Assembly: GCA_965215615.1 (NCBI GenBank)
Contig: OZ244068.1
Location: forward strand, 1,648,223 to 1,712,222
Source of the DNA: Vicinamibacteria bacterium
GTDB lineage: Bacteria; Acidobacteriota; Vicinamibacteria; Marinacidobacterales; Marinacidobacteraceae
DNA: 64,000 bases
Direction: 5' to 3'
The translations under genes and the position numbers were made by a program. Every line of letters starts with the position of its first letter. Within the stretch, counting starts at the first letter, position 1. Of this stretch, positions 1,886-47,944 are shown piece by piece. Below the pieces are notes generated by a model. It had not been told where the DNA came from, searched no databases, and worked only from the letters and a program-made list of their open reading frames with translations.

Positions 1886-3229
1886 ATGAAGATCGGCCGC
1901 CTTCTCGCTGCGCCCCTGCTGTTCGCCTCGCTCGCCTCGCTTGCCCCCGCCCAGCCGAGCGTCCTCCCGATGCGGGAGCGGGCAGCGCTCGTGGATCGCT
2001 GGCTCGACATCCGCTTCGAGACGGTGCTGCCGGAAATCATGCGGCGCGAAGGGGTGGATCTGTGGATCGTGGCGGCCCGCGAATACAACGAGGATCCGGT
2101 GATCCGGACCATGCTCCCCTACACCTGGCTCGCCGCCCGGCGGCGCACGGTGCTGATGTTCCATGACCTTGGAATGGAAGAAGGAGTCGAGCGGCTCGCG
2201 GTGGCCCGCTACGACATCGGCGGCATCCCGCGGGCCTGGGATCCCGATTCGGAGCCCGATCAATGGGGCCGGGTCGCGGAGCTCATCCGCGAACGGGATC
2301 CGGAGGTGATCGGGATCAACTGGTCCGAGGACTTCGGGCTCGCCGACGGTTTCACCGCGAGCGAGAACGCGGCGTTCCGGGAAGCGCTCGGGCCAGAACT
2401 CGCGGGCCGGGTGAAGCCGGTGGAGCGGCTCGCCATCGCCTGGCTCGAAACCCGGACCCCGGAGGAGATGGAGGTCTATCCGGGAGTGGTGCGGCTTGCC
2501 CGCTGGATCCTCTCGCGGGGGCTCTCCGGCGAAGTCATCCAGCCGGGGGCAACCACCACCGACGATGTCTCGTGGTGGTACCGGGAGAAAATCCGGGAAC
2601 TCAAGCTCCAGGCGTGGTTCCAGCCGGGCGTCTCGGTGCAGCGGCACGAAACCCAGGCCGTCGAGCTACGCGAGGACTACTCGGGGCGTCCGCCGCCGAA
2701 CACCATCCTCCCCGGTGACCTGATCCACGTGGACCTCGGGATCACCTACCTGCGGCTCAACACCGACACCCAGATGAATGCCTACGTGCTGCGGCCCGGC
2801 GAGACCGACGCTCCGGAAGGACTCCGCGAAGCGTTCGCAATCGGAAACCGGCTCCAGGACATCCTCACCGACGAGTTCGTCAGCGGCCGCACCGGGAACG
2901 AGATTCTCGGGGCGGCGCTCGAACAGGCGAGCCTCGAAGGAATCCGGGCTTCCATCTACACCCACCCGATCGGCTACCACGGCCACGGAGCCGGCCCCAC
3001 CATCGGCCTCTGGGATCGCCAGGAAGGCGTCCCCGGCAAGGGCGACTACCCGCTCTTCCCGATGACCGCCCACGCGATCGAGTTGAACGCGCGGGTTCCG
3101 GTCCCCGAGTGGGACGACCAGGAAGTCCGGATCGCTCTCGAAGAGGATGCCTTCTTCGACGGCGAAAGCACCTGGTACATCGATCCCCGCGCCGAACGGT
3201 TGCTGCTCATCCCCCGCCAGGAGAACTAG
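1886..3229 (+). CDS. secreted M24-family metallopeptidase (Xaa-Pro aminopeptidase/prolidase-like)
   Basis: ATG at 1886 gives signal peptide MKIGRLLAAPLLFASLASLAPA; creatinase/prolidase N-domain; metal-ligand region 'HPIGYHGHGAGPTIGLWD'; the upstream part of the track ORF is a non-coding extension. Confidence 0.8.
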   Translation: MKIGRLLAAPLLFASLASLAPAQPSVLPMRERAALVDRWLDIRFETVLPEIMRREGVDLWIVAAREYNEDPVIRTMLPYTWLAARRRTVLMFHDLGMEEGVERLAVARYDIGGIPRAWDPDSEPDQWGRVAELIRERDPEVIGINWSEDFGLADGFTASENAAFREALGPELAGRVKPVERLAIAWLETRTPEEMEVYPGVVRLARWILSRGLSGEVIQPGATTTDDVSWWYREKIRELKLQAWFQPGVSVQRHETQAVELREDYSGRPPPNTILPGDLIHVDLGITYLRLNTDTQMNAYVLRPGETDAPEGLREAFAIGNRLQDILTDEFVSGRTGNEILGAALEQASLEGIRASIYTHPIGYHGHGAGPTIGLWDRQEGVPGKGDYPLFPMTAHAIELNARVPVPEWDDQEVRIALEEDAFFDGESTWYIDPRAERLLLIPRQEN

Positions 3230-3234
3230 AAACA

Positions 3235-5192
3235 TGAATCAGGCATTGTCCCTGTCAGAAGTCTTCGACAAGCGGCTTTTCCGCATCCCCGACTACCAGC
3301 GTGGATATTCCTGGCGAGAGAAGCAACTCGAACAGTTCTGGGACGACCTCGTCTCCATGGGGGACCGACGCCACTACGCCGGTGTCCTCACCGTCCGCGC
3401 CGTATCCGTTGACAGTCCCAAATCACAGGAACACTGGCTTTGCCACGATCACAGTTATCGGTGCTACCACGTCGTGGACGGCCAGCAGCGCCTGACCAGT
3501 ATCGTTCTGCTCGTCGCAGCGATCGTTCACCACTTCCGGCCTTACGCTGATGGAAGTGACCCCCAGGTTGTCGGCACTCTCATGACGAGCAATCTCGAAG
3601 ATACATTTCTCTATCGCATTCATCCTGAAGGCGACATGGAGACGAATATCGTCAACTATGCCGTAGATGGCTCTCTCTGTCAGGTTCTTCATTCCTGTCT
3701 TCGATCCACAAGAATTGACGCATCTATTCGTAATGAAGCATCCAATCTGTACACGCGAAATCTTGTCTTCGCCCGCGAATTTTTCATTTCGCGCCTGAAA
3801 GATCTCGTACAGCAACAGGGGCCCGATGCCATCGGCCTGTTTTATCATCGGTTGACTCAAAATCTGTTCTTCAACATGTACGAGATTGAGGATGAATTCG
3901 ATGTCCATATCTCGTTCGAGACGATGAACAATCGTGGGTTGTCGCTTTCGACTCTTGACCTGGTCAAGAATCGCTTGATGTATCTGACTAATCTGTTTCA
4001 CCCCGGGAAGGAGCAAACTGCGGCCCGGCACACACTCCTCACCCATGTCAAGGACAATTGGCAGAAAATCTACGACGAATTGGGACACCACCCCACACAG
4101 CAACTGAATGAGGATTCGTTTCTTCGCGACCATTGGATCGCATACTTCGGGAAATCAGGTAGCGAGAATGAATGCGCCCGCTTTCTGCTCGAGGAGCGAT
4201 TCACAAAAGCAGCCGTTCATGGCTCATCGCCATCGATCTCCCCGGGTGACATTCACGATTACGTAGTTGACCTCGGAACATCTGTACGTCACTGGGTCTC
4301 GACCCATTTCCCAGAAAAAGTCCACAACACTCCTCTGCGAGCGGAACTCGAAAGACTCCAGCGAATGGGTGTGGGCTCTTTGCGGCCCCTCGTGATGGAG
4401 ATCCTGGGTCATCGAGATGATCTGCTTGCCGGAGAGGCGATACGAACAGTGGAGCGCTTCCGCTTCCTTGCATTTGCGATGGCGGGTCGGCGATCCGACT
4501 ACGGAAAGGCAGAGTTCCATAGGTTGGCTCACGCAATTCACAGTGACCAGAAGGAGCTGCGGGATGCGATCGACCAGATCCAGGCATGGACAACCGAGAG
4601 TGCCGAAAGTGTTGATCTGTTGGCAAATCGCTTCGCAGGAATTCTGACCAAAAACAGCGGCCAACTGGATTACTACCAATGGTCTGGCCTCAAACATCTA
4701 CTCTACGAATACGAACGATTCCTGGCAAGAGAGGATGGACCGGAGAAGGTAACCTGGCAAAAAATCGTCACGAACAGCGAAACAACGATATCCATCGAAC
4801 ACATTGCGCCGCAGACACCCACCCCCTACTGGGAGCAAAAAATTCCAGACGAGTACGAGGCATGGGCACAACAGCTGGGCAACCTCGTTCTCTTGGCCAA
4901 ACCGATCAATTCGGCATTGCAGAATCGACCCTTTGAGGAAAAGAAGAACGCCACGTGGGACAAGAGCGGCAAGGTCGCCCGCGTGGGATACAGCACCGGG
5001 AGCTATTCCGAGCTGGAAGTTGCCAGAGAGACCGAATGGAATGCGGATTCGATCCGCAGGCGTGGGTTGCGAATTCTCGAGTTCATGGCCGAACACTGGT
5101 CCATTCCCTTCTCGGATGCCCACAAGCAGCAGCTCGTCTCTCCGACCCCGAAGCGGCAGGTCCCAATATCGGATCCACTCGATTTCGAGTAG
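3235..5192 (+). CDS. DUF262 (ParB/GmrSD N-terminal, DGQQR) plus DUF1524 (HNH-like) nuclease, GmrSD-like type IV restriction protein
   Basis: Motifs 'IPDYQRGYSWREKQLEQFWDDL', 'VVDGQQRLTS', C-terminal 'IEHIAPQ'; AGGAGA SD 10 nt before the ATG; gene GC ~48% against ~70% in flanks. Confidence 0.8.
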
Positions 5193-15540: not shown

Positions 15541-15562
15541 CCCGAACTCGGGGCGGGACCAA

Positions 15563-15641
15563 CTGATTCGATCGGGGAACACACTTACATTGACGCAACA
15601 GCGCCCTTTTTGTCCCACCTGGGGTCCAAAATGTGGAAAAC
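15563..15641 (-). repeat. conserved ~80-nt intergenic element, copy A (inverted relative to copy B at 47215..47294)
   Basis: Reverse complement 'gttttccacattttggaccccaggtgggacaaaaagggcgctgttgcgtcaatgtaagtgtgttccccgatcgaatcag' matches 47215..47294 at ~90% identity; both copies follow a '...ATVRW' stop. Confidence 0.8.
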
Positions 15642-15660
15642 TTCTACCCCGCCCGCGCCC

Positions 15661-15985: not shown

Positions 15986-16148
15986 GGGCGCGCCACCACG
16001 CGCGAGACGCGGGAACAACGCCTCAACCCGCCCGTTGTTGTTTCGTTGTTGGTTGGAGGGGGGCTGCACGATGTCCTGCCACCTCGTCGTTCCGGGCGAT
16101 AACGCAACCCGCAGTCATTTCGGCTGGCTTTCCGCCGTATTTCCCCTG

Positions 16149-20036: not shown

Positions 20037-21368
20037 TCAGAACCCGGCAGCTTCCCGGAACGACTCCTTCCGGTCGAGGCGACGCAGGGTTTCGAGCATG
20101 ACCCGGGCACCTTGCGCCACCTGGCCGGCCTCGGTGAACTCGAGCGGGGAATGGCTGATCCCGTCGCGGCTCGGAACGAAGATCATCCCGATCGGCGCGA
20201 ACGCCGCGATGGACTGGGCATCGTGGCCCGCCCCGGAGGGCATCCGCCGCTGCGGATAGCCGAGATCCCGGGCCGATGCGGAAAGCAGCTCGAGGATCCC
20301 GGGATCGCAGGGAGCCGCCCGGCTCAGGTAGTACGGCTCGAAGTGGATGCTCGTGCCGTTCCTCTCCGCGATCCGGGCGCCGAGCTCCCGGTACCGGTCG
20401 TACATCTGCTGGATGACTTCCATGCTCAGATCGCGGATTTCGAGCGTCAGTTCGACTTCGCCGGGAATCACGTTGGCCGCCCCCGGATGCGCCTCCAGCC
20501 AGCCGACTGTGGCCACCTGGTGGCCCTCCCGGGCGAGCGTCTCGTCGTGGACCGCGGCGATGAAGCGGCCCGCCGTGACCATCGGATCCCTCCGCCGGGC
20601 CATCGCGGTGGTTCCGGCGTGGTTCGCGAAGCCGCGGATCGTCACCAGGAACCGCCGGATGCCGACGATGCCCTCCACGATCCCGATCGGGATACCCGAT
20701 TCGTGGAGGGTCGGGCTCTGCTCGATGTGGAGCTCGAGGAAAGCGTGATAGGCGCCCTGCGGGAGCGCCGCCTCGGTGATGCGCCCGGGGTCGCCTCCGA
20801 CGCGGGCGAGCGCCTCTCCGAGGGAGAAGCCTCCATACACTTCCCGGTCCATTTCTTCCGCGGACACTTCGCCGGCGAGCGCCCGGCTCCCGGTCTTGCC
20901 GTTCTCCTCGTTGAAGAAGACCACGACCTCGAAGGGGTGGCGCAGGCCGGAGCTTTCCCGAAGCGCCCGGGCGCACTCGAGAGCGGCCACCGATCCGGCC
21001 ACCCCGTCGAAGTTGCCGCCGTCCGGAACCGAATCGAGGTGCGAACCGGCGACCAGCGGCCGGAGCCCCGGCACCGAGCCCGGAATCGAGCCGATGAGAT
21101 TCCCGGCGAGATCCACCCGAACCGCCATGCCGGCCTCCTGCATCCAGGAGGCGAAGAGTTCCCGGGAGGCCCGATCCGCATCGCTCCCCGCGGTGCGGGA
21201 AACGCCGCCTTCCGGGGTCGCTCCGTGGCGGGCGAGCGCCTCGATCGCCGCCGCGACGCGGGACTCCGGAATGAGTTCCTGGATGGATCCCGCTTCCGCC
21301 GCCCGCATCATCACCCCTGCCCCGGCCGCGGCTCCGAGCCATTCCCTGCGCGTCAGTCCGGATTCCAT
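20037..21368 (-). CDS. M20-family Zn-dependent amidohydrolase (allantoate amidohydrolase / N-carbamoyl-L-amino-acid hydrolase family), Tat-exported
   Basis: Tat motif 'TRREWLGAAAGAG'; M20 metal-binding and dimerisation-domain similarity across 443 aa. Confidence 0.75.
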   Translation of the reverse strand: MESGLTRREWLGAAAGAGVMMRAAEAGSIQELIPESRVAAAIEALARHGATPEGGVSRTAGSDADRASRELFASWMQEAGMAVRVDLAGNLIGSIPGSVPGLRPLVAGSHLDSVPDGGNFDGVAGSVAALECARALRESSGLRHPFEVVVFFNEENGKTGSRALAGEVSAEEMDREVYGGFSLGEALARVGGDPGRITEAALPQGAYHAFLELHIEQSPTLHESGIPIGIVEGIVGIRRFLVTIRGFANHAGTTAMARRRDPMVTAGRFIAAVHDETLAREGHQVATVGWLEAHPGAANVIPGEVELTLEIRDLSMEVIQQMYDRYRELGARIAERNGTSIHFEPYYLSRAAPCDPGILELLSASARDLGYPQRRMPSGAGHDAQSIAAFAPIGMIFVPSRDGISHSPLEFTEAGQVAQGARVMLETLRRLDRKESFREAAGF

Positions 21369-21418: not shown

Positions 21419-21605
21419 TTAACAGGCTGTGGATAAACTGGCGTGAGCACCGAGACGGGTGAGGCGCCCGGCTGACAAGGCGCGTGAATGAGCAATAGCA
21501 GCGCTATTTCGAGCGAATCGCAACGAAGAGCGAGCCTCCAGGCGAGCGTTCAGACGGGATGCATCGCTCGTCGAATGCCGCGTTAGTTTTTCCACAGCCT
21601 GTTAA
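21419..21605. repeat. 187-bp element bounded by 20-bp terminal inverted repeats (ttaacaggctgtggataaac ... gtttttccacagcctgttaa); MITE-like or large regulatory palindrome
   Basis: Arms at 21419-21438 and 21586-21605 match 19/20 as reverse complements; each arm carries a TTAA tetranucleotide at its outer edge; lies in the divergent intergenic region. Confidence 0.5.
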
Positions 21606-21640: not shown

Positions 21641-23236
21641 ATGAACAGGTTCCTCGTTCCCCTCGTCGGGATCCTCGCCTTCGCCGCGTCGTCGTTCGGC
21701 CAGTCCCGACTCGGCACCGTGCATTTCCCGAACTCCGGCGCCGAAGAAGCGCAGGAGGCTTTCCAGCGCGGCATCGCCGCTCTCCACAGCTTCTGGTACG
21801 AAGAAGCCGCCGAGGCTTTCCGGAACGCCCAGGAGATCGATCCCGACTTCGCGCTCGCCTACTGGGGCGAGGCCCTGAGTCACAACCATCCGCTCTGGTC
21901 GGAGCAGGACATCAGCGCGGCGCGCGAGGTGCTGCGGCGCTTCGGCGACACCCGCGCCGAAAGGCTCCGGAAGACTCCCACCGAACGCGAGCGGATGTAC
22001 ATGGAAACGGTCGAGGTTCTCTACGGCGCGGGGGACAAGTACGAGCGGGATGAGCTCTACCACGAAGCGCTCGCCCGTCTGGTGGATGCCCATCCGGAGG
22101 ACAACGAAGCACAGGCCTTCAAAGCGCTCTCGTACCTGGGCCTCGTCCGGCGGGGCGAGCCGGGGTTCCACCGCCAGATGAGGGCGGGGGCCATCGCTAC
22201 CCGGCTCTTTCAGGAAGAGCCGAATCATCCGGGAGCGGCGCACTACGTGATCCACTCGTTCGATGATCCGGAACACGCTCCGCTGGCTCTCGATGCCGCG
22301 AACCGCTACGCCGAGATCGCTCCCGAAGCCCACCACGCCCAGCACATGCCGTCCCACATCTTCTTGCAGCACGGCATGTGGAACCGGGTCTCCCGCTCCA
22401 ACCAGGTGGCCTACGACGCCTCGGTGAAATGGGTGAAGGAGAAGAACCTCTCGATCACCAAGCACGACTTCCACAGCCTCGAGTGGAAGGCTTACGCCGA
22501 TCTCCAGCGCGGCCAGTACCAGGCCTCCGCGGAGGCCATCCGCGAAGTCGAGGAGTCCGCCGACACCACCGACGAGCTCCGCCTTCGCCGCCTCGCCGCC
22601 TCGATGGCGGCCCGGCACGCCATCGAGACCGGCCGCTTCGACGAGATCCGGATGCCGGGAGAGGAAGTGGACACCAGCCGGTACAACTCGACGGCGAACG
22701 TGCTGCTCGCGGTGGGAATGAAGGCATTTGCGATGGCGGATGCCGACCTGGCCGACGGGGCGGCGATGCGGCTCCGGAAGCTCGCCGAAGCGCGCGATGC
22801 GGAGGGCGAGAGCTACCAGGCCGACTCGGTGCGCATCATGCAGCACGGGATCGAAGCGCTGGCCGCCAGCGTGCGCGGGGATACCGAAGCGGCGCTCGAA
22901 CACGCGAGGATGGCCACCGACATCGAAGAGACGCAGGATCCGCCTTCCGGTCCGACCTACCCGATGAAGCCGTCCCACGAGCTGCGGGGTGAGCTGCTGC
23001 TCGCCGCCGGACAGTACGAAGAAGCGATCACCGTCCTCGAAGAGGGGCTTTCCCGCACGCCGAACCGATCCCTTTCGCTGCTGGCGCTCGCCCGCGCCCG
23101 GGCCGGGTTCGGCGATACCACGGGCGCGAACGCCGCCTACGCCACCCTCCAGACCTTCCTGAACGAAGCGGACAGCGATGTTCCCTTCCTCGACGAGGTC
23201 CGGCGCCACGCGGCACCGATGACCGACCAGCAGTAG
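21641..23236 (+). CDS. secreted TPR-like repeat protein (hypothetical)
   Basis: GGAGG 9 nt upstream of the ATG at 21641; signal peptide MNRFLVPLVGILAFAASSFG; helical repeat-rich 531-aa protein. Confidence 0.6.
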   Translation: MNRFLVPLVGILAFAASSFGQSRLGTVHFPNSGAEEAQEAFQRGIAALHSFWYEEAAEAFRNAQEIDPDFALAYWGEALSHNHPLWSEQDISAAREVLRRFGDTRAERLRKTPTERERMYMETVEVLYGAGDKYERDELYHEALARLVDAHPEDNEAQAFKALSYLGLVRRGEPGFHRQMRAGAIATRLFQEEPNHPGAAHYVIHSFDDPEHAPLALDAANRYAEIAPEAHHAQHMPSHIFLQHGMWNRVSRSNQVAYDASVKWVKEKNLSITKHDFHSLEWKAYADLQRGQYQASAEAIREVEESADTTDELRLRRLAASMAARHAIETGRFDEIRMPGEEVDTSRYNSTANVLLAVGMKAFAMADADLADGAAMRLRKLAEARDAEGESYQADSVRIMQHGIEALAASVRGDTEAALEHARMATDIEETQDPPSGPTYPMKPSHELRGELLLAAGQYEEAITVLEEGLSRTPNRSLSLLALARARAGFGDTTGANAAYATLQTFLNEADSDVPFLDEVRRHAAPMTDQQ

Positions 23237-33808: not shown

Positions 33809-34138
33809 ATGCCCGAAGCTCCTCGCGGGAAGTTCGGTCGCGTGCACCAGCTCGTCCGCCGGATTCCGGCCGGCCGGGTCACGAGCTACGGCCGCCTGGC
33901 CCGCGCGGTCAGCGCCGAAGGACACCCGCTTTCAGCGCGGGAGGCCGGCTGGGCCATGCGGAACTGCCCCGACGGGGTGCCCTGGCACCGGGTGGTGAAC
34001 GCGGCGGGCGAGCTCTCGGCAGAGGCGCGGGGCGGCTGTCCGCAGGGCCTTCAGCGAGCCCTCCTCGAACGCGAACGGGTTTTGTTCGATTCTCGCGGGA
34101 AAGTCCGGATGGATCTCCACCTCTGGGAGCCCGCCTGA
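33809..34138 (+). CDS. atl: alkyltransferase-like protein (MGMT DNA-binding domain without the catalytic Cys; PWHRV)
   Basis: 'TSYGRLA' and 'PWHRVVNAAG' where MGMT has PCHRV; 109 aa. Confidence 0.7.
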   Translation: MPEAPRGKFGRVHQLVRRIPAGRVTSYGRLARAVSAEGHPLSAREAGWAMRNCPDGVPWHRVVNAAGELSAEARGGCPQGLQRALLERERVLFDSRGKVRMDLHLWEPA

Positions 34139-34235
34139 CAGGCTGTGGAAAAACCAACCTGACGCGGCATTCGCCGGGCGGTCGGGCGGTTCCCTGTTAC
34201 CATTCCGCTTGTGGGATGGGTGCCATTGGTGGACC

Positions 34236-34382: not shown

Positions 34383-34403
34383 CCCCCCCCCCCCCCCCCC
34401 CCC
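34383..34403 (+). repeat. homopolymeric poly-C tract (21 nt) ending 5 nt upstream of the giant gene ATG
   Basis: Direct reading: C run 34383-34403, then 'gaaaa', then ATG at 34409; no SD-like purine run; in-frame TAG 48 nt upstream rules out an earlier start. Confidence 0.95.
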
Positions 34404-34408
34404 GAAAA

Positions 34409-37400
34409 ATGCGCGGTGTAAGGGGCTGGTTTCGTGGGCGGGTAGCCCTGTCATGCAGGAGTCTCCGGGGCGTTCTCGCCGCCGCGCTGCTGTTCGGCAT
34501 CGCCACCGCCGCCGAAGCGCAGACGACCGTCACTTTCGTAAGCAATCTGAATAGCGAAGGCGGAACCGACAATGCTAATACATTTAGAGATCGCCTAGCG
34601 CAATCCTTCACCACGGGTGCCAGCAGTGGCGGCTATCTCCTGTCGTCCGTCGAGATCTACCTCGGTAGAAATGCCTATGTAGGGGGCACCCCTGTGGTCG
34701 TCATCCGTGCGGACAGCAGTGGCGACCCCGGTGATGTCGTAGTCACCCTGACCAATCCGGGAAGCTATCCCGGAAGGCAAGATAGAGATGGGGGCACTGC
34801 CATCTTCACCGCCCCAGCGGGCACGACGCTCGCCGCGAGCACCACCTACTGGGTGGTCATCAACGACGAAGATCGAAGTCTTTTCTGGGCGAGCGCCTAC
34901 AGCAAAAACCACACGACGACGGGACTGCCCGGCTGGAGCATGGGTGGTACAAAGATACGTCGACAGGGTGCTACTAATTGGGCAACTTTTGACGACCTAC
35001 TACCGATGGAACTCAGCGGCACGGTGGTCACTGCCAGCGGCCCCGACGCCCCCGCGAACCTGCAGGCGGTGGTGAGCAGCGGCCAGGTGGAGTTGACATG
35101 GGATGACCCGTCGGACGACACGATCACGAAGTACCAGTACCAGCAGCGGACGCCTCCCAGCACCGGCACCTGGGGAGAGTGGACGGACATTTCGAACAGC
35201 GACGAGGACACCACCGATCACACGGTGACGGGGTTGACGAACGGCACGGAGTACGAGTTCGGGGTGCGTGCAGTGGCGGGGAGCACGAACGGCACGGCGG
35301 CCACGGTGAGCGCGACGCCCGTCGCCCCACCGGCAGCGCCGACGAGCCTGACGGCCAGGGCGGGTGCCACCCAGGTCACGCTGAGCTGGACCGACCCGGG
35401 CAACGCCACGATCACGAAGTACCAGGTGCGTTACGGCGCGGGCCTGACCACCGATTCGGGCTTCAGTTGGGGGACGTGGGCAGACGTTTCGAGCAGCAGC
35501 GCGACCACCACGAGCGCCACGGTGACCGGGCTGACGAACGGCACGGAATACACCTTCGGGGTCCGCGCCGTCGGCCTTTCGGGGGATGGCGCGGAGGCGA
35601 CGGTGTCGGCGACGCCTTTGGCCTCGGGCGCCCCGGCCAAGCCGACGGGCCTGACGGCGACAGCGGGCGGTAGCAGCGTCACCCTGAGCTGGACCGCCCC
35701 GAGCGGCACGATCACGAAGTACCAGGTCCGTCAGGGGACGGGCGATCCGGTCATGTGGGGGGCGTGGGCGGACATCACGGGCACCACGAGCCACACGGTG
35801 ACGGGCCTGACGAACGGCACGGAATACAGCTTTCAGGTGCGCGCGGTGGCGAACACGGTGCTGGGTGCGATGTCGGACACGGCGTCCGCGACGCCGAACG
35901 CCCCGCCGGCGGCGCCCGCCGGCTTGAAGGCCGAGGCGTACCCCGCCGAGATCAGACTGGAGTGGACCGAGCAGACCGACGACACCATCACCGGGTACCA
36001 GTATCAGACCCGCGCCAGAAGCGAAGGCGACTGGGGCGACTGGAGCGGCTGGAGCAATGTGCCCCTCGGCGAAGTCGGCGAGGATGACAAGGTCTTCAGC
36101 TTTTCGGGCAAGAGCTATTACAAGGTGGCCGACCTGACCAACGGCACCGAGTACGGCGTCCGGATCCGGGCGGTGGCCGGAACGGTGCCCGGCGCGGCGT
36201 CGGCCATCGTGACCGGGACTCCGAACGTCCGGCCGCTCGCGCCCACGGGCCTGAGCGCCACGGCGGGCGACGGGCAGGTCAGCCTGACGTGGGACGATCC
36301 CTCGAACGCCGCGATCACCAAATACCAGGTGACTTACGAGGTGGTCGCCACGAGCGTGCCCGCGACGGAGGACGTCCCGGTCAACGGCGCCACCACCAGC
36401 CACACCGTGACGGGCCTGGTGAACGGCACCCTGTACAGCTTCGAACTCGTCCCCTTCGCCGGCACGGTGTCGGGCCCGTCTTCGGGCAAGGTGCGGGCGA
36501 CCCCGACGGCCCCGGCGGGCCTGACGCTGACGCAGCCGGACGACAGGCAGGTGGACGAGGGCGACACCGCGGACACGGCAACCTTCACGGTCGCGCTGAG
36601 GAGCTTGCCGGCCGCGGACGTGATGGTGACGGTGACCGCCCCCGCCGGGCTGGAACTCGACGGCCCGGATGCCGGCGGCGTGTTTGCTTCCAGCGAGGAC
36701 CTCGCCTTCACCACCGCGAACTGGAACAGCGCGCAGACGGTGACGGTGCGCGCCACCGACGACAGCACGGACAGCCCGAGCGGGCGGGAAGAGGTCATCG
36801 CCTGGTCCGCGACCTCGACGGACACCGACTACAGCGGCCTGAAAGGCGATGCGGCCACCGTCACGGTGGTGGACAACGACCCGACGACGGTGACGCTCGC
36901 GGGCGCCGCCGGGGATGTGACCGAGGGCGGGACGAAGGACTTCACCGTCACCCTGGGGCGCGGCCTGGTGAGCGGCGAGAGGCTGGTGGTGCCGCTGACC
37001 TTCGGCACCGGCACCGGCACCGCGACGCGGAACACGGACTACACGGTGGCGTGCCCCTCGCCGCTGCCGGACGGGGCCGGAGTGGTCTGCGCGAACCTGA
37101 ACACCGGAAACGCGGCGTTGACCTTCGCCGGTCCGAGCATGGGGGAGACGTTGAAGGAGGTGACGCTGACGCTGAGTGCGGCGAGCGACAACACGACCGA
37201 AACGGGCGGCGAGACGGTGATCATCGGCCTCGGCACGCTGAACGCGAGTTCGGGGACCGGTCTGGAGGGCGGGGCGAGCGGCACCGACAGCCTGGCGGAC
37301 TTCAAGATCACCGACCCGGACGCGAGTGTGCCGACGGTTGCGATCACCGGGATCCCGGCGAAGATCAACAACACGAACGCGCTGACGGCGACCTTCACCT

Positions 37401-40400
37401 TCTCGGAGGCGGTGACGGGCTTCGAGAAGGCCGACATCACGGTGACGGGCGGCACGGCGGGCACGTTCTCGGCGACGAGCACGACGGTCTATACGCTCGG
37501 GATCACTCCCGACGGCGATGCGAACGTGGTGGTGACGGTGGCGGCGAACAGCGCGACCGACGGCACGAACATGGGCCCGGCGAGCGCGGAGAGTGCGACG
37601 GCCGTGTGGGACGAGACGGCGCCGACGGTCGAGATCACCGGGGTACCCGGCAAGATCAGCAACCGCGATGCGTTCACCGTGACCTTCAGCTTCTCGGAGA
37701 CGGTGACGGGCTTCGACACGGACGATGTCAGCGTCACGAACGGCGACAAGAGCGCGTTCTCGGGCAGCGGCAGCAGCTATACGGTGGTGGTGACCCCGAA
37801 TGCCGACGCGGACGTGACGGTGACGGTGGCCGCGGGCGGCGCAACCGACGGGTTGAACACCGGCCCGGCGAACGCGGTGAGCGCGACGGCCACCTGGGAT
37901 GCGAGCGTGCCGACGGTCGAGATCAGCGGGGTACCGAAGAGGATCACGACCCGCGCCGCGTTCACGGTGACGTTCACCTTCTCGGAGTCGGTGACGGATT
38001 TCGTGACCGGCGATGTCACGGTCACGAACGGCGACAAGAGCTCGTTCACGGGCAGCGGCAGCAGCTATACGGTGGTGGTGACCCCGAATGCCGACGCGGA
38101 CGTGACGGTGACGGTGGATGCGAACTCGGCGACGGACGGCACGAACACCGGCCCGACGGCCGATGTGGTCGCGACCGCGGTGTTCGGCGCGCCGGCGGCG
38201 CCGACCGTGACGGCGACGGCGGGGAACGGTCAGGTCACTCTGAGCTGGACCGACCCGTCCGACGACACGATCACTGAGTACGAGTATCAGCAGCGGGAGG
38301 AGGGCGGCACCTGGCCGAACAGCTGGACGGACATCGCGAACAGCGCGAGTCTCACCGAGTACGCGGTCACCAGCCTGACGAACGGGACGACCTACGAGTT
38401 CCGGGTCCGCGCCGTGTCCGGGACGGTGACCAGCCCGGCCTCGAGCGTCGTGACCGCGACGCCTCTCGCGGCGACCGCCCCCGGCCCGCCGCGGGACCTG
38501 AGGGTCGCGCCGGGCGACGGGCAGGTCGTTCTGAATTGGCGTGTCCCCGGAACCAACGCCGACGCGATCACGAAGTACGAGTTCCGCCAGGGAACGGGCG
38601 ACCCCCTCGCCTGGGGTGCGTGGGGGGACGCCTCCGGCACCACCACGAGCCACACGGTGACGGGCCTGACGAACGGCACGGAATACAGCTTTCAGGTGCG
38701 CGCGGTGGCGAACACGGTGCTGGGTGCGATGTCGGACACCGTGGAAGCGACTCCCAACCCGGTACCGGCCGCCCCGACGAACTTCACGGCCACGAAGGGG
38801 ACAGCCAGCGGCGCTATCGCCCTGAGCTGGACCGCCCCGAGCGGCACGATCACCAGGTATGAATACCGGCTCCGCCCTGTCGGTGGTGACTGGCCACAAA
38901 GCTGGACCCGCTTGACTGTCCTCGTCACCAGCTTCACGGTGGGGAGCCAGACGGACGGCACGGAGTACGAGATCGAACTCCGCGCCGTCAACGATTCGGG
39001 CGCGGGTGCCGCCGCCAGCGCGACCGCGACCCCGTTGGACCCGACCGCCGCGGCGGCGCCGACGAGCTTCACGGCGACGGCGGGGAGCGGTCAGGTCGCT
39101 CTGGCATGGACGGCCCCGAGCGGCACGATCACGAAGTACCAGGTGCGGCAGGGGACGGGCGATCCGGTCGTGTGGGGGGCGTGGGCGGACATCACGGGCA
39201 CCACGAGCCACACGGTGACGAGTCTGACGAACGGCACGGAATACAGCTTCCAGGTGCGTGCGGTGACCGGGACTTCGGTGCTGGGTGCGATGTCGGCGAC
39301 CGCGACGGCGACGCCGACGGCCGCGCCGGGGGTGACGATCTCGGTGACGGACGCGTCGGTGAGCGAGGCCGACCAGACGGACACGGCGACCTTCACGGTG
39401 GTGCTGAACACGGAGCCGTCGTCGGGGCTGGTGGTCGTGAGCGTGGATGCAAGCGGAGCCCCCGGGCTGGAGCTCGACGGCCCGGACGCCCCCACTGCGT
39501 TCAGCAACGCCGAGGTCCTGACGTTCACCACCACGAACTGGAACAGCCCGCGGACGATCAGGGTGCGCGCCACTTCCGAGGCCACGGACAACCCGAGCGG
39601 CCGGGAGGAGACGATCACCTGGACCGCGACTGCGACCGCGGATACCGACTACCAGAACCTGACCGGGGATGCGGCGACGGTCACGGTGGTGGACAACGAC
39701 CCGACGACGGTGACGCTCGCGGGCGCGGCGGGGGATGTGGCCGAGGGGGCGACGAAGACCTTCACGGTGACCCTGGGCCGGGGTCTGGTGGACGGCGAGA
39801 CGCTCGGGGTGCCGCTGGCCTTCACCGGTACCGCGACGCGGGGCACGGACTACATGACGGCGTGCCCGACGACACTTCCGACCGGGGTGACCTGTAACGA
39901 CCTCGACGACACGAGCCTGACCCCGACGGTGACCTTCACGGGGCCGACCTCGGGGGCGACGGCGCGGACGGTGACGCTGACGCTGAGTGCGGCGAGCGAC
40001 AACACGACCGAAACGGGCGGCGAGACGGTGATCATCGGCTTCGGCACGCTGACGGCCACCGGTCTGGAGGGTGGCACGAGCACCACCGACAGCCTGGCGG
40101 ACTTCAAGATCACGGACCCGGACGCGAGTGTGCCGACGGTTGCGATCACCGGGATCCCGGCGAAGATCAACAACACGAATGCGCTGACGGCGACCTTCAC
40201 CTTCTCGGAGGCGGTGACGGGCTTCGAGAAGGCCGACATCGCGGTGACGGGCGGCACGGCGGGCACGTTCTCGGCGACGAGCACGACGGTCTATACGCTC
40301 GGGATCACTCCCGACGGCGACGCGAACGTGGTGGTGACGGTGGCGGCGAACAGCGCGACCGACGGCACGAACATGGGCCCGGCGAGCGCGGAGAGTGCGA

Positions 40401-43400
40401 CGGCCGTGTGGGACGAGACGGCACCGACGGTGGAGATCACCGGGGTACCCGGCAAGATCAGCAACCGCGATGCGTTCACCGCGACCTTCAGCTTCTCGGA
40501 GACGGTGACGGGCTTCGACACGGACGATGTCAGCGTCACGAACGGCGACAAGAGCGCGTTCTCGGGCAGCGGCAGCAGCTATACGGTGGTGGTGACCCCG
40601 AATGCCGACGCGGACGTGACGGTGACGGTGGCCGCGGGCGGCGCAACCGACGGGTTGAACACCGGCCCGGCGAACGCGGTGAGCGCGACGGCCGTGTGGG
40701 ACGAGACGGCGCCGACGGTGGATATCACCGGGATACCGGCGAAGATCAACAACACGAATGCGCTGACGGCGACCTTCACCTTCTCGGAGTCGGTGACGGG
40801 CTTCGCGAAGAGCGACATCACGGTGACGGGCGGCACGGCGGGGGCGTTCGGGGGCAGCGGCACCACCTATACGCTCGCGATCACCCCGACGAGCGGTTCG
40901 AACGTGGTGGTGACGGTGGCTGCGAACAGCGCGACCGACGGCACGAACATGGGCCCGGCGAGCGCGGAGACGGCGACGGCCACCTGGGATGCGAGCGTGC
41001 CGACGGTCGGGATCACCGGGGTGCCGGCGCGGATCAGCGGCACGAGCGACCTGACGGCGACGTTCACCTTCTCGGAGGATGTCACGGGCTTCGTGAAGAA
41101 CGACATCACGGTGACGGGCGGCACGGCGGGCACGTTCACGGAGAGCAGTTCCACGGTCTATACGCTCGTGATCACCCCCGACGGCGACGCGAACGTGGTG
41201 GTGACGGTGACGGCGGACAGCGCGACCGACGGGTTGAACATGGGCCCGGCGAGCGCGGAGACGGCGACGGCGGTGTGGACCGCCCTGGTCTTCAACCCGG
41301 CGGCGGTGACCGTGGTCGAGGAGGCGAGCGCGACCTACACGGTGGAACTCTCGAGCCAGCCCGATGGGAACGTCACGGTGACGGTCTCGGGGGCGAGCGG
41401 GGAGGTGACGTTCGACACCGACTCCACGACGCCGGGCACCCAGACGACGGCGCTGACCTTCACGACGACCACCTGGGACGATGCGCAGACGGTGACGGTG
41501 TTGGCGGCGGCCGACGGCGACACGGCGAACGACAGCGCGACGCTGACGCACACCGCGTCGGGCGGCGGGTACGGCTCGGTGACCGGGGATGTGGAGGTGA
41601 CGGTGACCGACAACGACACGCCGGGTCTCGTCCTCGATCCGACGAGCCTGACGGTGGCGGAGGGCGGCAGCGGCACCTACACGGTGGCGCTCGCGACCCA
41701 GCCGACGGCGAGCGTGACGGTGACGGTCGCGGGGGCGAGCGGCGAGGTGACGTTCGACACCGACGGCGACACGGGCGGCAACCAGAACACGCTGACCTTC
41801 ACGACGAGCGACTGGGGCACGGCGCAGACGGTGACGGTGTCGGCGGGTCAGGACAACGATGCCGACGACGACAGCGCGACGCTGACGCACAGCGCGTCGG
41901 GTGGCGGCTACGGCTCGGTGACCGGGAACGTGGCGGTGACGGTGACCGACGACGACACGGCGAGCGTGGTCACGACAGAACCCGACGCGACGGCGACCGA
42001 GGGCAGCACCACGGACGAGGCGACCTTCACGGTGGCGCTGAACACCCGGCCGTCGAGCGATGTCACGGTGACGGTGACCGCGCCGACGGGTCTGACGCTC
42101 GACGGCCCGGACAGCGCCACCACGTTCACGAGCAGCGAGGGCCTCACCTTCACCAGCACGAACTGGAGCACGGCGCAGACGGTGACGGTGCGCGCGACCG
42201 ACGACAACGATGACAGCCCGATCGGTCGGGAACTGACGGTCACCTACGCCGTGACTTCGTCGGACAGTGGCTACAGCGGCCTGAGCGGGGATGCGGCGAC
42301 GGTCACGGTGGTGGACGACGACCCGACGACGGTGACGCTCGCGGGCACTGCCGGGGATGTCGTGGAGGGCGGGACGAAGACCTTCACGGTCACGCTGGAG
42401 CGCGGCCTCGTGAACGGCGAGACGTTGCCGGTGCCGCTGACCTTCGGCGGGGACGCGACGCGGGGCACGGACTACACGACGGCGTGTCCCACGACACTGC
42501 CGACGGGGGTGACCTGCGCGAACCTCGACTCGGGGACCCCGACGGTGACCTTCACGGGGCCGAGCACGGGGGCGACGGCGACGACGGTGACGCTGACCTT
42601 GACGGCGACGACGGACAACACCGCGGAGGCGGGCGGCGAGTCGGTGGTCATCGGCCTCGGCACGCTGAACGCGAGTTCGGGGACCGGTCTCGGGGGCGGC
42701 GCGAGCGGCACCGACAGCCTGGCGGACTTCGACATCACCGACCCGGACGCGAGCGCGCCGACGCTCGAGATCAGCGGGGTACCGAAGAGGATCACGACCC
42801 GCGCCGCGTTCACGGTGACGTTCACCTTCTCGGAGTCGGTGACGGACTTCGTCACCGGCGATGTCACGGTCACGAACGGCGACAAGAGCTCGTTCACGGG
42901 CAGCGGCAGCAGCTATACGGTGGTGGTGACCCCGAATGCCGACGCGGACGTGACGGTGACGGTGGATGCGGACTCGGCGACGGACGGCACGAACACCGGC
43001 CCGCCGGCCGATGTGGTCGCGACCGCGGTGTTCGGCGCGCCGGCGGCGCCGGCCAGTCTCTCCGCCACGGCGGGCAACGCCGCGGTCACCTTGAGCTGGA
43101 CCGACCCGATGGACGACACGATCACCGGGTACGAGTTCCGTCAGGGTGTCCAGAGTTCGCCCGTCACCTGGGGCAGCTGGACGCCCATCACGAACAGCGA
43201 CAAGGACACCACCTCCCACACGGTGACGGGTTTGACCGACGGCACGGAGTACTACTTCCAGGTCCGCGCGGTGTCCGATGCGGTGATGGGCGAGCCCTCG
43301 GCCGAGGAGAACCGGGACGCGGTGGTAACACCGGTGGCGGTGAACGCGCCGGCGGCGCCGACGGGCCTCGGGGCGACGGCGGGCAACGGCCAGGTGGCCT

Positions 43401-46400
43401 TGAGCTGGACGGCCTCGAGCAGCAACGGCATCACGAAGCACCAGGTGCGCAGCGGATCGGGCGATCCGCTCGTCTGGGGGAGTTGGACGGACATCGCGAA
43501 CAGCGCCAGTATCACGAGCCACACGGTGACGGGGCTGACGAACGGGACGGAGTACAGCTTCCAGGTGCGCGCGGTGGCGACGGCGGTGCTGGGTGTGACG
43601 TCGGACACGGCGGTCGCGACCCCGAGGGGTGCCGCGGGCGTGACGACGACGCAGCCGAGCGACCGGCAAGTGACCGAGGGTGACACTTCGGACACGGCGA
43701 CCTTCACGGTGGAACTCGACACCCAGCCGTCGAGCGATGTCACGCTGACGGTCGAGGCTGTCGCCGGGCTGGAACTCGACGGCCCGGACGGCGCCACCGC
43801 GTTCACGGCGAGCGAGGCGCTGACCTTCACGAGCAGCAACTGGGGCACGGCGCAGACGGTGACGGTGCGCGCCACGGACGACAGTGTTGACAGGCCCAGC
43901 GGGGGCGATCTGACCGTGAGCTACTCGATAGCATCGTCGGACAGTGGCTACAACTTGCTCTTCGGTGTGGCCGCCCTCGTCACCGTCATCGACAACGACC
44001 CGACCGCGGTGACCCTTGCGGGGGCCGCCGGGGACATCACCGAGGGCGAGACGAAGGACTTCACCGTCACGCTGGGCGTGCGCGGTCTGGTGAGCGGCGA
44101 GACGCTCGGGGTGCCGCTGACCTTCACCGGTGGCGCGACGCGGGGCACGGACTACACGACGGCGTGTCCCTCGTCGCTGCCGACCGGGGTGACGTGTAAC
44201 GACCTGAACACGGCGGCGACTCCGACCGTGACCTTCACCGGGCCGAGCACGGGGGAGACGGCGCGGACGGTGACGCTGACGCTGAGTGCGGCGACGGACA
44301 ACACGGCCGAGACGGGCGGCGAGACGGTGATGATCGGCCTCGGCACGCTGACGGCTACCGGTCTGGAGGGCGGGGCGAGCGGCACGGGCAGTCTGGCGGA
44401 CTTCCGGATCACCGACCCGTCGGCGACGGACACGACGGTACCGACGCTTTCGATCTCGGGAGTACCGGGGACGATCAGCACGAGGGCGGCGTTCACGGCG
44501 AACTTCACCTTCAGCGAGTCGGTGACGGACTTCGATACGAACGACATCACGGTGACCGGCGGGAGCAAGGGCACGCTCTCGGGCAGCGGGAGGAGCTACC
44601 GGATGCGGATCACGCCGACCGGCGGGGTGAACGTGGTGGTGACGGTGCGTCGAAATGCGGCGACCGACGGCACGAACCGGGGCCCGGCGGCGGCGGTGTC
44701 GCGGACCGCGACCTGGCGTGCCCCGAGTCCGCCGCCGCAGCAGCCGCCAGCGGAGGAAGACGACGACGATCCGCCTTCTTCCGGTGGTGGCGGCGGTGGT
44801 GGGGGTAGTACCCCGTCCCTCCCCTCGGCTTCTCTGTCCGCCGTCTCGGTGAGCGCGGGGCAGATGGTGATCGAGGGCGGCGAGGCGCTGTTCCGGATCA
44901 CCGCGAGTCCGGTGCCGAGCGACGAGATCACGGTGCGGGTGCGGGTGTCGGCGACGGGCGACTTCGTGGACGGGGTGCAGCTCGGCGAGCGGCTCGTCAC
45001 GCTCTCGGCTTCGGCGCCCACGGCGAGTCTGCGGGTAGCCACCATCGATGACCGCCGGAACGAGGCGGACGGGACGGTGACGGTGACGGTGCTTTCGGGC
45101 GAGGACTACCGCCTGTCGCAGGCCTCGGCCTCGCTCGCGGTCACGGACGACGACACGCCCGCGCTGGTCCTGACTCCGGAGACGCTGACGGTGGACGAGG
45201 GCGGCAGCGGGAACTACCGGGTGGCGCTCGCCACCGAACCCGCCGGCGATGTGACGGTGAGCATCGCGGGCACGGGTGAGGTGACGACGGCGCAGAACAC
45301 GCTGACCTTCACCGCGGGGAACTGGAACGTGGCGCAACCGGTGACAGTGTCGGCGGGGCAGGACGCGGATGCGGCGGACGACCGGGCGAGACTGGATCAC
45401 CGCGCGAGCGGCGGCGGCTACGACTCGGTGACCGGCAGCGTGGCGGTGACCGTCATGGACGACGACACGCCGGGCCTGATCCTGACTCCGGCGGCGCTGA
45501 CGCTGGCGGAAGGCGCGAGCGCGAGCTACACGGTGGCACTCGCCACCGAGCCGACGGGGAACGTGACGGTGAGCATCGCGGGCACGGGCGATGTGACGGT
45601 GGACCGGAGCACGCTGAGCTTCACCGCCCGGAACTGGAGCGCGGCGCAGACGGTGACGCTCTTCGCGGCGCGGGACGAGGATGTGGCGAACGACAGCGCG
45701 ACGCTGGCGCACCACGCACGGGGCGGTGACTACTCATCGGTCACCGGCAGCGTGGAGGTGACGGTGACGGATGCGGGCGCGGCGGTGGTGTCGGCGCATC
45801 TGGCACGGTTCGGCCGGACGGTGGCGGAGCAGGCGCTCGACGGGATCGCGGGAAGGCTGCGGGCGCCGCGCACGGCGGGGATGCAGAAGACGCTCGCAGG
45901 TCCCCGCCTGAACGTTCCGCGCGAAGGAGATACGGCGCAGGGCACGATGCACGCCGAGGCGCGGAGGACCGGCTTCGAGAACGAGTACGAGAGCCAAAAC
46001 CGCGACCTGCTGCACCTCCCGAACGCCCGGGAAATGCTGCTCGGGTCGAGCTTCACGCTCACGACCCAGGAGGCGGAGGGAACCGGGGGCAGCTTCGCCT
46101 TCTGGGGCCGGGCGAGCGCGAACCGCTTCGACGGCGCCACGAACGACGGAGCCACGGCGATCGGCCTCGACGGCGAGGTGCTGACGGGTCTCGTGGGCGC
46201 GGACTATGCGCGGGGCGACTGGCTCTTCGGCCTGGCGCTGACCCACAGCCTCTCCGAGGGGGGCTACACCAGCGAAGGTGCCAGCGGCGGCAAGGTGGAT
46301 GCGTCGCTGACGGCGGCGCTGCCGTATGCGTCGATCCAGGCGAACCCGCGGCTGAAGCTCTGGGGTGCGGGCGGCTACGGCATCGGCGAGGTGACGCTCA

Positions 46401-47212: not shown

Positions 47213-47214
47213 CA

Positions 47215-47294
47215 GTTTTCCACATTCTGGCCCCCAGGCGGGACAAAACGGGCGCTGTTGCGTCAATGTATGTATGTTCCCCGATCGAATCAGG
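47215..47294 (+). repeat. conserved ~80-nt intergenic element, copy B (pairs with 15563..15641)
   Basis: See copy A; sits 2 nt after the giant gene stop. Confidence 0.8.
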
Positions 47295-47347: not shown

Positions 47348-47944
47348 ATGACCGACGAAAAAATGACCGACGCAGAGCTGAAAGCGCTGGTTGCTGGCCT
47401 GGCCACGGCGCAGGACCGCACCGATGCCCAGATGGCGAAGACCGATGCCAAGATCGACCGGCTGGTGGACCGAATTGCGGAGACCGAGGTCCTGGTGAGG
47501 GAAACCTCCGTCGAAATCAAAGAGCTGTCGAAAATGTACGGCGGTGCCAGCAACAACCTGGGCGCGGCGGTCGAGGAGTTCTTCTACAACAGCCTCAAGG
47601 CCCATCCGGTTCTCGGTGGGGTGCGCTTCGAATCCGTCGAAAGGAACGTCCCGGGCCGCGACGACAAAACCGGCCAGAAGGACGAGTTCGACCTGCTGCT
47701 CGTGAACGGCAGCGAGGTGTTCGTCGTGGAGGTGAAGCACAGGGCGCACAAGGACGACCTGAAGGACCTGCTGGACGAGAAGGCACCGAACTCCCGGCGG
47801 ATGTTCCCGAAGTACGCCGGCCACCGGCACCGGTTCGCTCTCGCCACGTTCCACATCCATGACGAACTGAAGGAGTCGGCTCTGGAGAAGGGGGTGACCG
47901 TGCTGCAGCGCAAGGGCGACGTGATCGAAACCTCCCCGGCCTGA
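47348..47944 (+). CDS. hypothetical protein: N-terminal coiled coil plus C-terminal PD-(D/E)xK-like nuclease fold
   Basis: N-terminus is a heptad-like K/E/D-rich helix; C-terminal 'DEFDLLLVNGSEVFVVEVKHR' fits a D...E-x-K restriction-endonuclease-like core. Confidence 0.5.
   Translation: MTDEKMTDAELKALVAGLATAQDRTDAQMAKTDAKIDRLVDRIAETEVLVRETSVEIKELSKMYGGASNNLGAAVEEFFYNSLKAHPVLGGVRFESVERNVPGRDDKTGQKDEFDLLLVNGSEVFVVEVKHRAHKDDLKDLLDEKAPNSRRMFPKYAGHRHRFALATFHIHDELKESALEKGVTVLQRKGDVIETSPA

Follow-up and report, generated by a model that had tools for sequence, protein, structure and literature searches.

Between an M20-family hydrolase gene and a divergently transcribed TPR-protein gene, the 64-kb stretch of DNA analysed here (referred to as the window) carries a non-coding feature of 187 bp whose two ends are inverted copies of each other. 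The same arm is found at a second place in the window, beside another gene. This poses the question whether the feature is a piece of mobile DNA, or instead a regulatory site that connects several loci. We propose that it is very probably a MITE of the IS5 family, that is, a small non-coding element that duplicated a TTAA target, and that the window also holds a second, truncated copy. The full-length copy has recently inserted in the source strain.

Element anatomy and empty sites

An inverted-repeat search of the window returned an arm pair of 21 nt (21419-21439 and 21585-21605) that is complementary at 20 of 21 positions, with 145 nt between the arms. Given the base composition of the window, chance would produce ~0.002 inverted pairs of this quality (≥ 20/21, spacer ≤ 300 nt) in 64 kb. 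An earlier note on this DNA had described the arms as 19/20 complementary over 20 nt, with a spacer of 147 nt and TTAA at each outer edge. This description is correct on recount, and TTAA is present on both sides. If the TTAA and one inner base are left out of the count, the arms are 16 nt long and match at 15 positions. The 16-mer CAGGCTGTGGAWAAAC occurs exactly three times in the window (21423+, 21586-, 34139+), against an expectation of 0.34. A MITE should be short (< ~500 bp), lack coding capacity and carry terminal inverted repeats. The body of the element has all of these properties; its sole ORF, of 58 aa, is without a Pfam match. The coordinates are collected in Table 1. Here, the + strand of the body is the orientation homologous to the family alignment described below, and it is also the strand that folds better.

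Table 1. Positions of the element, its parts, its truncated copy and its neighbouring genes in the window.
Feature	Position	Strand	Basis or remark
Left target-site duplication copy, TTAA	21419..21422	.	single TTAA(C) in the empty L092 and L186
MITE body, 179 bp, non-coding, CAGGCTGTGGATAAAC…GTTTTTCCACAGCCTG	21423..21601	+	absent from two conspecific strains; hairpin; family alignment
Left terminal inverted repeat, CAGGCTGTGGATAAAC	21423..21438	+	fits family/IS consensus CAGGnTGnnGAWAAAS
DnaA-box consensus match in left arm, TTATCCACA	21428..21436	-	consensus scan
Sub-terminal motif, CAAGGCGCG	21476..21484	+	common to family members and the transposase-proximal end of the L260/L268 IS
Right terminal inverted repeat, GTTTTTCCACAGCCTG on +, CAGGCTGTGGAAAAAC on -	21586..21601	-	arm pairing
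DnaA-box consensus match in right arm, TTTTCCACA	21588..21596	+	consensus scan
Right target-site duplication copy, TTAA	21602..21605	.	empty-site comparison
Truncated/decayed second copy, one arm and ~26 nt sub-terminal	34139..34180	+	alignment to the right end of the full copy
M20-family hydrolase gene	20037-21368	-	divergent neighbour
TPR-protein gene, ATG at 21641	21641-23236	+	divergent neighbour

Close relatives of the M20-family hydrolase in public assemblies led to three syntenic loci. L186 is a closed 2.9-Mb genome with 97.4% nucleotide identity to the window over 21.4 kb, L092 is a JGI metagenome contig with 95.4% nucleotide identity, and L097 belongs to a more distant lineage with 75% protein identity. 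All three keep the divergent hydrolase/TPR gene pair with only ~90-100 bp between the genes, and all three are without the element. In L092 and L186 the empty allele reads …GAATTCCCTTAAC|CTAG/CTAA… (also given as CCCTTAAC|CTAG…), with one TTAA, while the filled allele in the window reads CCC-TTAA-(CAGGCTGTGG…CCACAGCCTG)-TTAA-CCTAG. The BLAST alignment between L186 and the window breaks exactly at 21423/21602, with an overlap of 5 nt. TTAA is doubled where the site is filled and single in both strains where it is empty, as is expected of a target-site duplication. The 179-bp element with its duplicated TTAA is a within-species insertion polymorphism, filled in the window and empty in the 97.4% and 95.4% relatives. 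The comparison with related strains that the earlier note had recommended thus yields exact empty sites.

The 21 kb compared contain one more minor difference between strains, located in the rplM-pilM intergenic region (window ~16055-16089), where the window has an extra ~15-nt tandem copy (GTGTGCCTCTCTTC) relative to L186.

Short relatives and IS5-family elements with the same ends

The bare 17-mer of the arm is unspecific. We searched species-representative genomes with the 19-mer TAACAGGCTGTGGAWAAAC, in which the 17-mer is extended by TA ahead of ACAGG. This gave 88 matches. The Firmicutes matches were rejected as family members, as they are coding (TTA ACA GGC TGT GGA AAA encodes the lipobox LTGCGK), and so were two Paenibacillus matches, which are real DnaA boxes upstream of dnaA. 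Apart from coding matches and chance matches in DnaA arrays, the 19-mer marks the ends of non-coding elements of 83-355 bp that carry the arm again in inverted orientation. The arm, whose recurrence had been noticed within the window, bounds short elements that form a multi-copy family spread over many genomes. One Desulfobacteraceae MAG holds at least 20 copies, many of them at contig ends or N gaps, and several other genomes also hold multiple copies. Further hosts are other Desulfobacterota, many Nitrospira MAGs, a Planctomycetaceae MAG, Pseudomonas, Acidobacteriota and others. The 64-kb window contributes a single complete copy and a single truncated one.

On either side, the tetranucleotide that adjoins CAGG…CCTG is YTAR, and in the family copies the two flanks co-vary as a direct repeat. 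The left/right combinations are CTAA/CTAA (12 copies), CTAA/CTAG (3), CTAA/TTAA (2), CTAA/TTAG (0) and TTAA/TTAA (3), and the covariation of the first base is significant (Fisher's exact p = 0.003). Non-canonical flanks, CCAG/CCAG in L207 and CTAG/CTAG in L102, confirm the 4-bp duplication. The earlier note had offered two explanations for the TTAA, either as part of the palindrome or as a target-site duplication. Direct-repeat flanks across the family exclude the former, and together with the single TTAA of the empty alleles they establish the latter. Where the arms of the short elements were not forced by the search pattern, their consensus is CAGGnTGnnGAWAAAS.

A degenerate arm pattern scanned over viral contigs revealed an autonomous element whose termini match and which makes the same duplication. 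This element (L260/L268) is 1,355 bp long, is flanked by TTAA/TTAA and has the arms CAGGCTGGTGAAAAAC. Its sole ORF encodes 370 aa that match the curated NCBIfam model NF033581, "IS5 family transposase", with 269.5 bits (cutoff 140) and contain the Pfam domains DUF772 and DDE_Tnp_1. Relatives of this transposase with 54-56% identity from four further sources are bounded by the arms CAGG(C/A/T)(C/T)GC(G/T)GAAAAA(G/C) and YTAR flanks; L269, L270 and L272 are complete (1.31-1.35 kb), and L271 and L273 show one end only. Taken together, the complete elements (L260/L268, L269, L270, L272) measure 1.31-1.36 kb and share CAGGnnGnnGAAAAAS arms and YTAR flanks. The likeness extends beyond the arms. The transposase-proximal end of the L260 element carries CAAGGCGC 18 nt inside its arm, and a sub-terminal CAAGGCGC(G) is common to this IS end, the MITE family and the window copy. 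In most short elements, CAAGGC(G/C) sits ~18 nt inside the arm, the same place as in the IS; in the window copy, CAAGGCGCG lies at N37 from the terminus, against ~N18 in the IS and most family members.

A 4-bp YTAR duplication is a documented signature of IS5 (PMC10359306), and the IS5-family element ISXo1 likewise makes 4-bp YTAR duplications (bioRxiv 10.1101/2023.04.27.538605). Because the termini, the YTAR duplication and the arm consensus of the short family match those of elements that encode an IS5-family transposase, we assign the window element to the IS5-family MITEs. The MITE interpretation, one of two put forward in the earlier note, is borne out by the empty sites, the multi-copy family, the direct 4-bp flanks and the autonomous IS5 elements with the same termini.

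Other candidates for autonomous elements were discarded. Among the long-spaced arm pairs (3.5-7.5 kb; L184, L118, L156 and L140), those of L184, L118 and L156 enclose urease, proteasome/Pup-ligase and CNNM genes and therefore represent independent MITEs. A relaxed search for arm pairs at IS spacing in all fetched loci returned noise, and its candidates, in L175 and L102, enclose ordinary membrane-protein genes. Judged by reading their translations, the inward ORFs beside unpaired termini include no transposase. No IS5-family transposase gene is found in the window or in the ~21 kb seen of each relative.

A metagenome scan tuned to the window sub-family gave no further copy with the interior of the window element, and BLAST of the element against 72,556 plasmids returned chance-level matches only. 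A full-text literature search for the terminal sequence found nothing relevant, and a review of MITEs (PMC10969869) mentions no such family. The IS5-derived MITE family with these termini appears, in the sources searched, to be unnamed, and it is unusually widespread. Since its termini are conserved between Pseudomonas, Nitrospira, Desulfobacterota, Planctomycetota and the source lineage, its definition will be useful for annotation. It also accounts for assembly breaks and gaps in MAGs, as hairpin repeats of this kind break or gap short-read assemblies. In the Desulfobacteraceae assembly UBA5852 (L102, 1988-2074 and ~2857-2980; L115, L126, L142, L147, L178 and L179), N runs fall exactly inside MITE copies whose arms are intact, and several contigs end in an arm. 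More short copies lie in contigs classified as viral, namely L258 (669-825, 157 bp) and L262 (3582-3749 and 10677-10844, 168 bp each). Phage or prophage DNA is thus a further carrier of the family.

The second copy in the window had been described as a solo arm that overlaps the stop codon of atl. It is more than an arm, since it aligns with the reverse complement of the right end of the full copy over ~42 nt, with 34 of 37 positions identical and a 5-nt insertion. Judged by this alignment, it is a truncated and older copy of the same element. Beyond 34180 the similarity fades; …GGTTCCCTG|TTAC near 34196 may be a remnant. Folding the copy gives no significant structure. There is no overlap with the stop codon: the copy begins directly after the TGA (34136-34138) of the alkyltransferase-like (atl-like) gene (PF01035), and its flank, CTGA, includes this stop codon. 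A site just behind a stop codon agrees with the target preference, as YTAR includes TAA or TAG. Many family copies lie only a few bases from the end of an ORF, and in high-GC DNA a target that contains TAA or TAG would be rare outside stop codons, which would fit this placement.

Further downstream, a homopolymer of 21 C (34383-34403) precedes the first in-frame ATG (34409) of a giant gene (34409-47212) by a few nucleotides; this gene encodes a 4,267-aa autotransporter-like protein. The poly-C run is a candidate slipped-strand phase-variation switch for this giant surface protein.

The core of the arm had also been reported inside two 80-nt elements of the window. While TGTGGAAAAC is indeed shared (15632-15641, 47215-47224), the overlap consists of this DnaA-box-like 10-mer only, and the 80-nt elements are unrelated to the MITE. 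The copy upstream of pilM (15557-15643, -) is conserved in place in L186, L092 and L097, with an invariant, DnaA-box-like AGTTTTCCACA, which identifies it as a leader or promoter region of pilM passed on by vertical descent. The other copy (47213-47293, +) follows the giant gene and lies within a longer inverted duplication ~31 kb away, which includes the last ~50 nt of the autotransporter gene (…GGCCCCGGTG.GCAC.TCTTCGGG.TCGAGGCCACCGT.CGCTGGTGA). In the window as well as in L186, the pilM copy has a remnant of this gene end beside it. The inverted repeats that flank these 31 kb could mediate their inversion.

Hairpin, DnaA boxes and alternative readings

Folding the RNA of the feature, another of the checks suggested earlier, gives a long and stable hairpin. 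The entire 187 nt, rather than just the two arms, form one long imperfect hairpin, with a minimum free energy of -97.3 kcal/mol (z = -8.2) on the + strand and -77.8 kcal/mol (z = -5.6) on the - strand. When 12 members of the Desulfobacterota-type and Pseudomonas-type sub-families are aligned, a rod-like consensus of 45 pairs emerges, 25 of which show compensatory changes. In this alignment 91% of cells are paired, compared with 29-41% when the partners are slid by 1-3 columns, and 0 of 500 shuffles reach the observed covariation. The internal loops contain the conserved motifs CAAGGC, AAGCG·AGC … GAGCA and CAACGC. A simple deletion of an IS does not explain such an interior, which the alignment describes as a full-length hairpin with compensatory changes. 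Of 29 family members, 25 fold better on the strand homologous to the + strand of the window, although these copies are related by descent. As the copies are kin, and as the arms of a palindrome can be homogenised by templated repair, neither the strand bias nor the covariation proves selection on a single-stranded form.

Two readings make more of the fold. One sees a cross-phylum lineage of hairpin MITEs that is under selection for its rod structure, loop motifs and strand-asymmetric folding and that acts single-stranded, either as ssDNA aiding its own mobilisation or as a mobile RNA module altering adjacent genes; its arms would double as DnaA boxes in some sub-lineages, including that of the window. 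We regard this as unlikely. The other, which we hold to be very unlikely, takes the feature primarily as a gene for a structured non-coding RNA, or as a cis-regulatory RNA in the 5'-UTR of the TPR gene, with the inverted repeats at its edges a coincidence. In line with such a role, the + strand is the sense strand for the TPR gene 39 nt downstream and folds far better than its complement (9 against 4 G:U pairs). The shared folding orientation of 25/29 members, the compensatory changes in 25/45 consensus pairs and the conserved loop motifs would be expected as well. However, Rfam gives no match at the gathering threshold in the window (between 21300 and 21720, chance-level matches with E > 1) and the elements at 12 family loci have no Rfam match either. 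A scan of the element and its surroundings found neither a sigma-70-like promoter nor an intrinsic terminator, and with a crude gene calling the copies show no consistent orientation towards neighbouring genes. Moreover, the insertion is too recent to have been shaped by local selection, the kinship of the copies reduces the 25/29 to fewer than 25 independent events, and templated repair can keep the palindrome arms matched without any selection on RNA.

The arms could, alternatively, be operators of a chromosomal regulator, DnaA or another, that controls the M20/TPR locus and also the atl/giant-gene and pilM loci. Both arms of the window copy match the DnaA-box consensus TTWTNCACA, of which the window contains five matches against 0.41 expected. 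Every relative carries the box upstream of pilM unchanged. In addition, the 17-mer ACAGGCTGTGGAWAAAC occurs in many phage- and plasmid-like contigs (L001-L091), mostly in genuine head-to-head DnaA-box arrays, TTATCCACAGGCTGTGGATAAACCTGTGGATAA, which are presumably replication origins; the MITE arm corresponds to one half of this palindromic double box. Against this stands the absence of the 183-bp block from the same intergenic region of two conspecific strains with near-identical flanks, and it is likewise absent at the orthologous position in L097, so there is no conserved operator or DnaA-box cluster here. The five boxes reduce to two independent events because they stem from one mobile family and one duplicated pilM leader. 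Furthermore, the consensus is kept in only 6 of 29 independent, unforced family arms, and the variable arm positions 8 and 9 lie in the CACA core of the box. The DnaA box is therefore not family-defining, nor is it what conserves the termini, although the window copy may bind DnaA incidentally. A role as replication origin was likewise rejected, given the empty sites and the loss of the box in family arms, and the GC skew in the window tracks the giant gene with no sign of an origin. We consider a binding site for a shared regulator, the other proposal of the earlier note, highly improbable.

Two further readings invoke other kinds of mobility. A REP- or PATE-type palindrome moved as ssDNA by an HUH (Y1) transposase of the IS200/IS605 or RAYT type would insert 3' of TTAA(C) without duplication. 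The full-length hairpin with its strand-asymmetric folding would suit this, and the filled and empty alleles in the window and its relatives formally fit a 183-bp insertion beside TTAA. We nevertheless judge it extremely improbable: the element has genuine terminal inverted repeats, the transposases of the autonomous relatives are of the DDE rather than the HUH type, and the flanking tetranucleotides, CCAG/CCAG included, co-vary as direct repeats family-wide, which requires a duplication. The insertion of an ORF-less cassette in the form of an integron attC-like site, or of a different hairpin used in site-specific recombination, is practically excluded. Size and imperfect hairpin resemble those of attC sites, and in TTAA-flanked copies the left boundary YTAAC resembles an R'' box (RYYYAAC), with a right boundary, GTTAAC/GTTAAG, similar to an R' core. 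In attC sites, however, R'' and R' (GTTRRRY) are reverse complements of each other, as in CTAAC with GTTAG, whereas in the family a left CTAA is combined with CTAA or CTAG 15 times and with TTAG 0 times. The direct-repeat flanks rule out an attC-like site. Most right boundaries are GCTAA and lack the near-invariant GTT, neither an integrase nor a cassette array is present nearby, and the autonomous copies carry a DDE transposase.

Mobilisation, locus and comparison with known systems

For the IS5-family MITE that we favour, mobilisation would proceed in trans. An IS5-family DDE transposase supplied by another element would recognise the 16-nt terminal inverted repeats (CAGGnTGnnGAWAAAS), excise or copy the element and insert it at a YTAR tetranucleotide by a 4-bp staggered cut. 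Repair of this cut would then duplicate the target, giving the TTAA at 21419 and 21602.

At the locus studied here, where frr, pyrH, tsf and rpsB are found close by on the far side of the hydrolase gene, the insertion lies upstream of both neighbours, 54 bp from the start codon of the hydrolase gene and 39 bp from that of the TPR gene. It splits the 90-bp upstream region that the two genes share in the empty strains. Any divergent promoters would be parted, with a hairpin and two consensus DnaA boxes set between them. For a TPR promoter located beyond the insertion point, the distance to the gene would grow by 183 bp, and the transcript would include the -97 kcal/mol hairpin. The filled and empty strains form a natural pair in which the effect of a MITE hairpin on two flanking genes could be tested. 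Across the family, the orientation of copies relative to neighbouring genes follows no pattern under crude gene calling.

Several other features of the window are of interest in their own right. A low-GC island (56174-57679, -; GC 0.48-0.56, compared with ~0.67 elsewhere) contains a 501-aa ORF without Pfam domain and was probably acquired horizontally. Two possible defence genes were found as well. One encodes a GmrSD-type restriction endonuclease (3147-5192, +) in a stretch of lower GC (0.60-0.61), the other a small NERD-domain protein (47348-47944, +) directly downstream of the duplicated copy of the pilM leader.

The finding amounts to mobile DNA and ordinary biology, and it will not surprise a specialist in mobile elements. 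Its practical consequence is that the motif shared between these loci should not be read as a regulon.

With the IS5 of E. coli (insH), the element shares the 4-bp YTAR duplication (PMC10359306), and the autonomous relatives encode the same type of DDE transposase, composed of DUF772 and DDE_Tnp_1. The termini of E. coli IS5, GGAAGGTGCGAATAAG, are weakly and not convincingly similar to the window arms, and InsH is 23% identical to the L260 transposase, a relationship at the family level only. Much closer are the IS5-family elements of the NF033581 'transpos_IS5_4' type, such as L260/L268, which have CAGGnTGnnGAWAAAS termini, the YTAR duplication and CAAGGCGC in common with the window element. 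The latter differs from them in its length of 179 bp, in having no transposase gene and in an interior that is a foldback hairpin instead of two unrelated ends.

A DnaA box inside the terminal repeat of a DDE transposon, as seen in the window copy, is known from the outside end of IS50/Tn5. There, the box has the opposite orientation relative to the terminus; in the window family, moreover, the box is not conserved.

In its general design, the element resembles the classical bacterial MITEs, Correia/NEMIS in Neisseria, ERIC in enterobacteria and RUP in Streptococcus. These are ~100-200 bp long, with terminal inverted repeats and a short target duplication, and like the window element they are intergenic, can form a long hairpin and vary in presence from strain to strain. 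They derive from other parent families, and the duplication is TA in Correia and RUP, compared with the 4-bp YTAR described here. The family of the window element spans at least five phyla rather than a single genus, and unlike them it forms a hairpin with compensatory substitutions between its sub-families.
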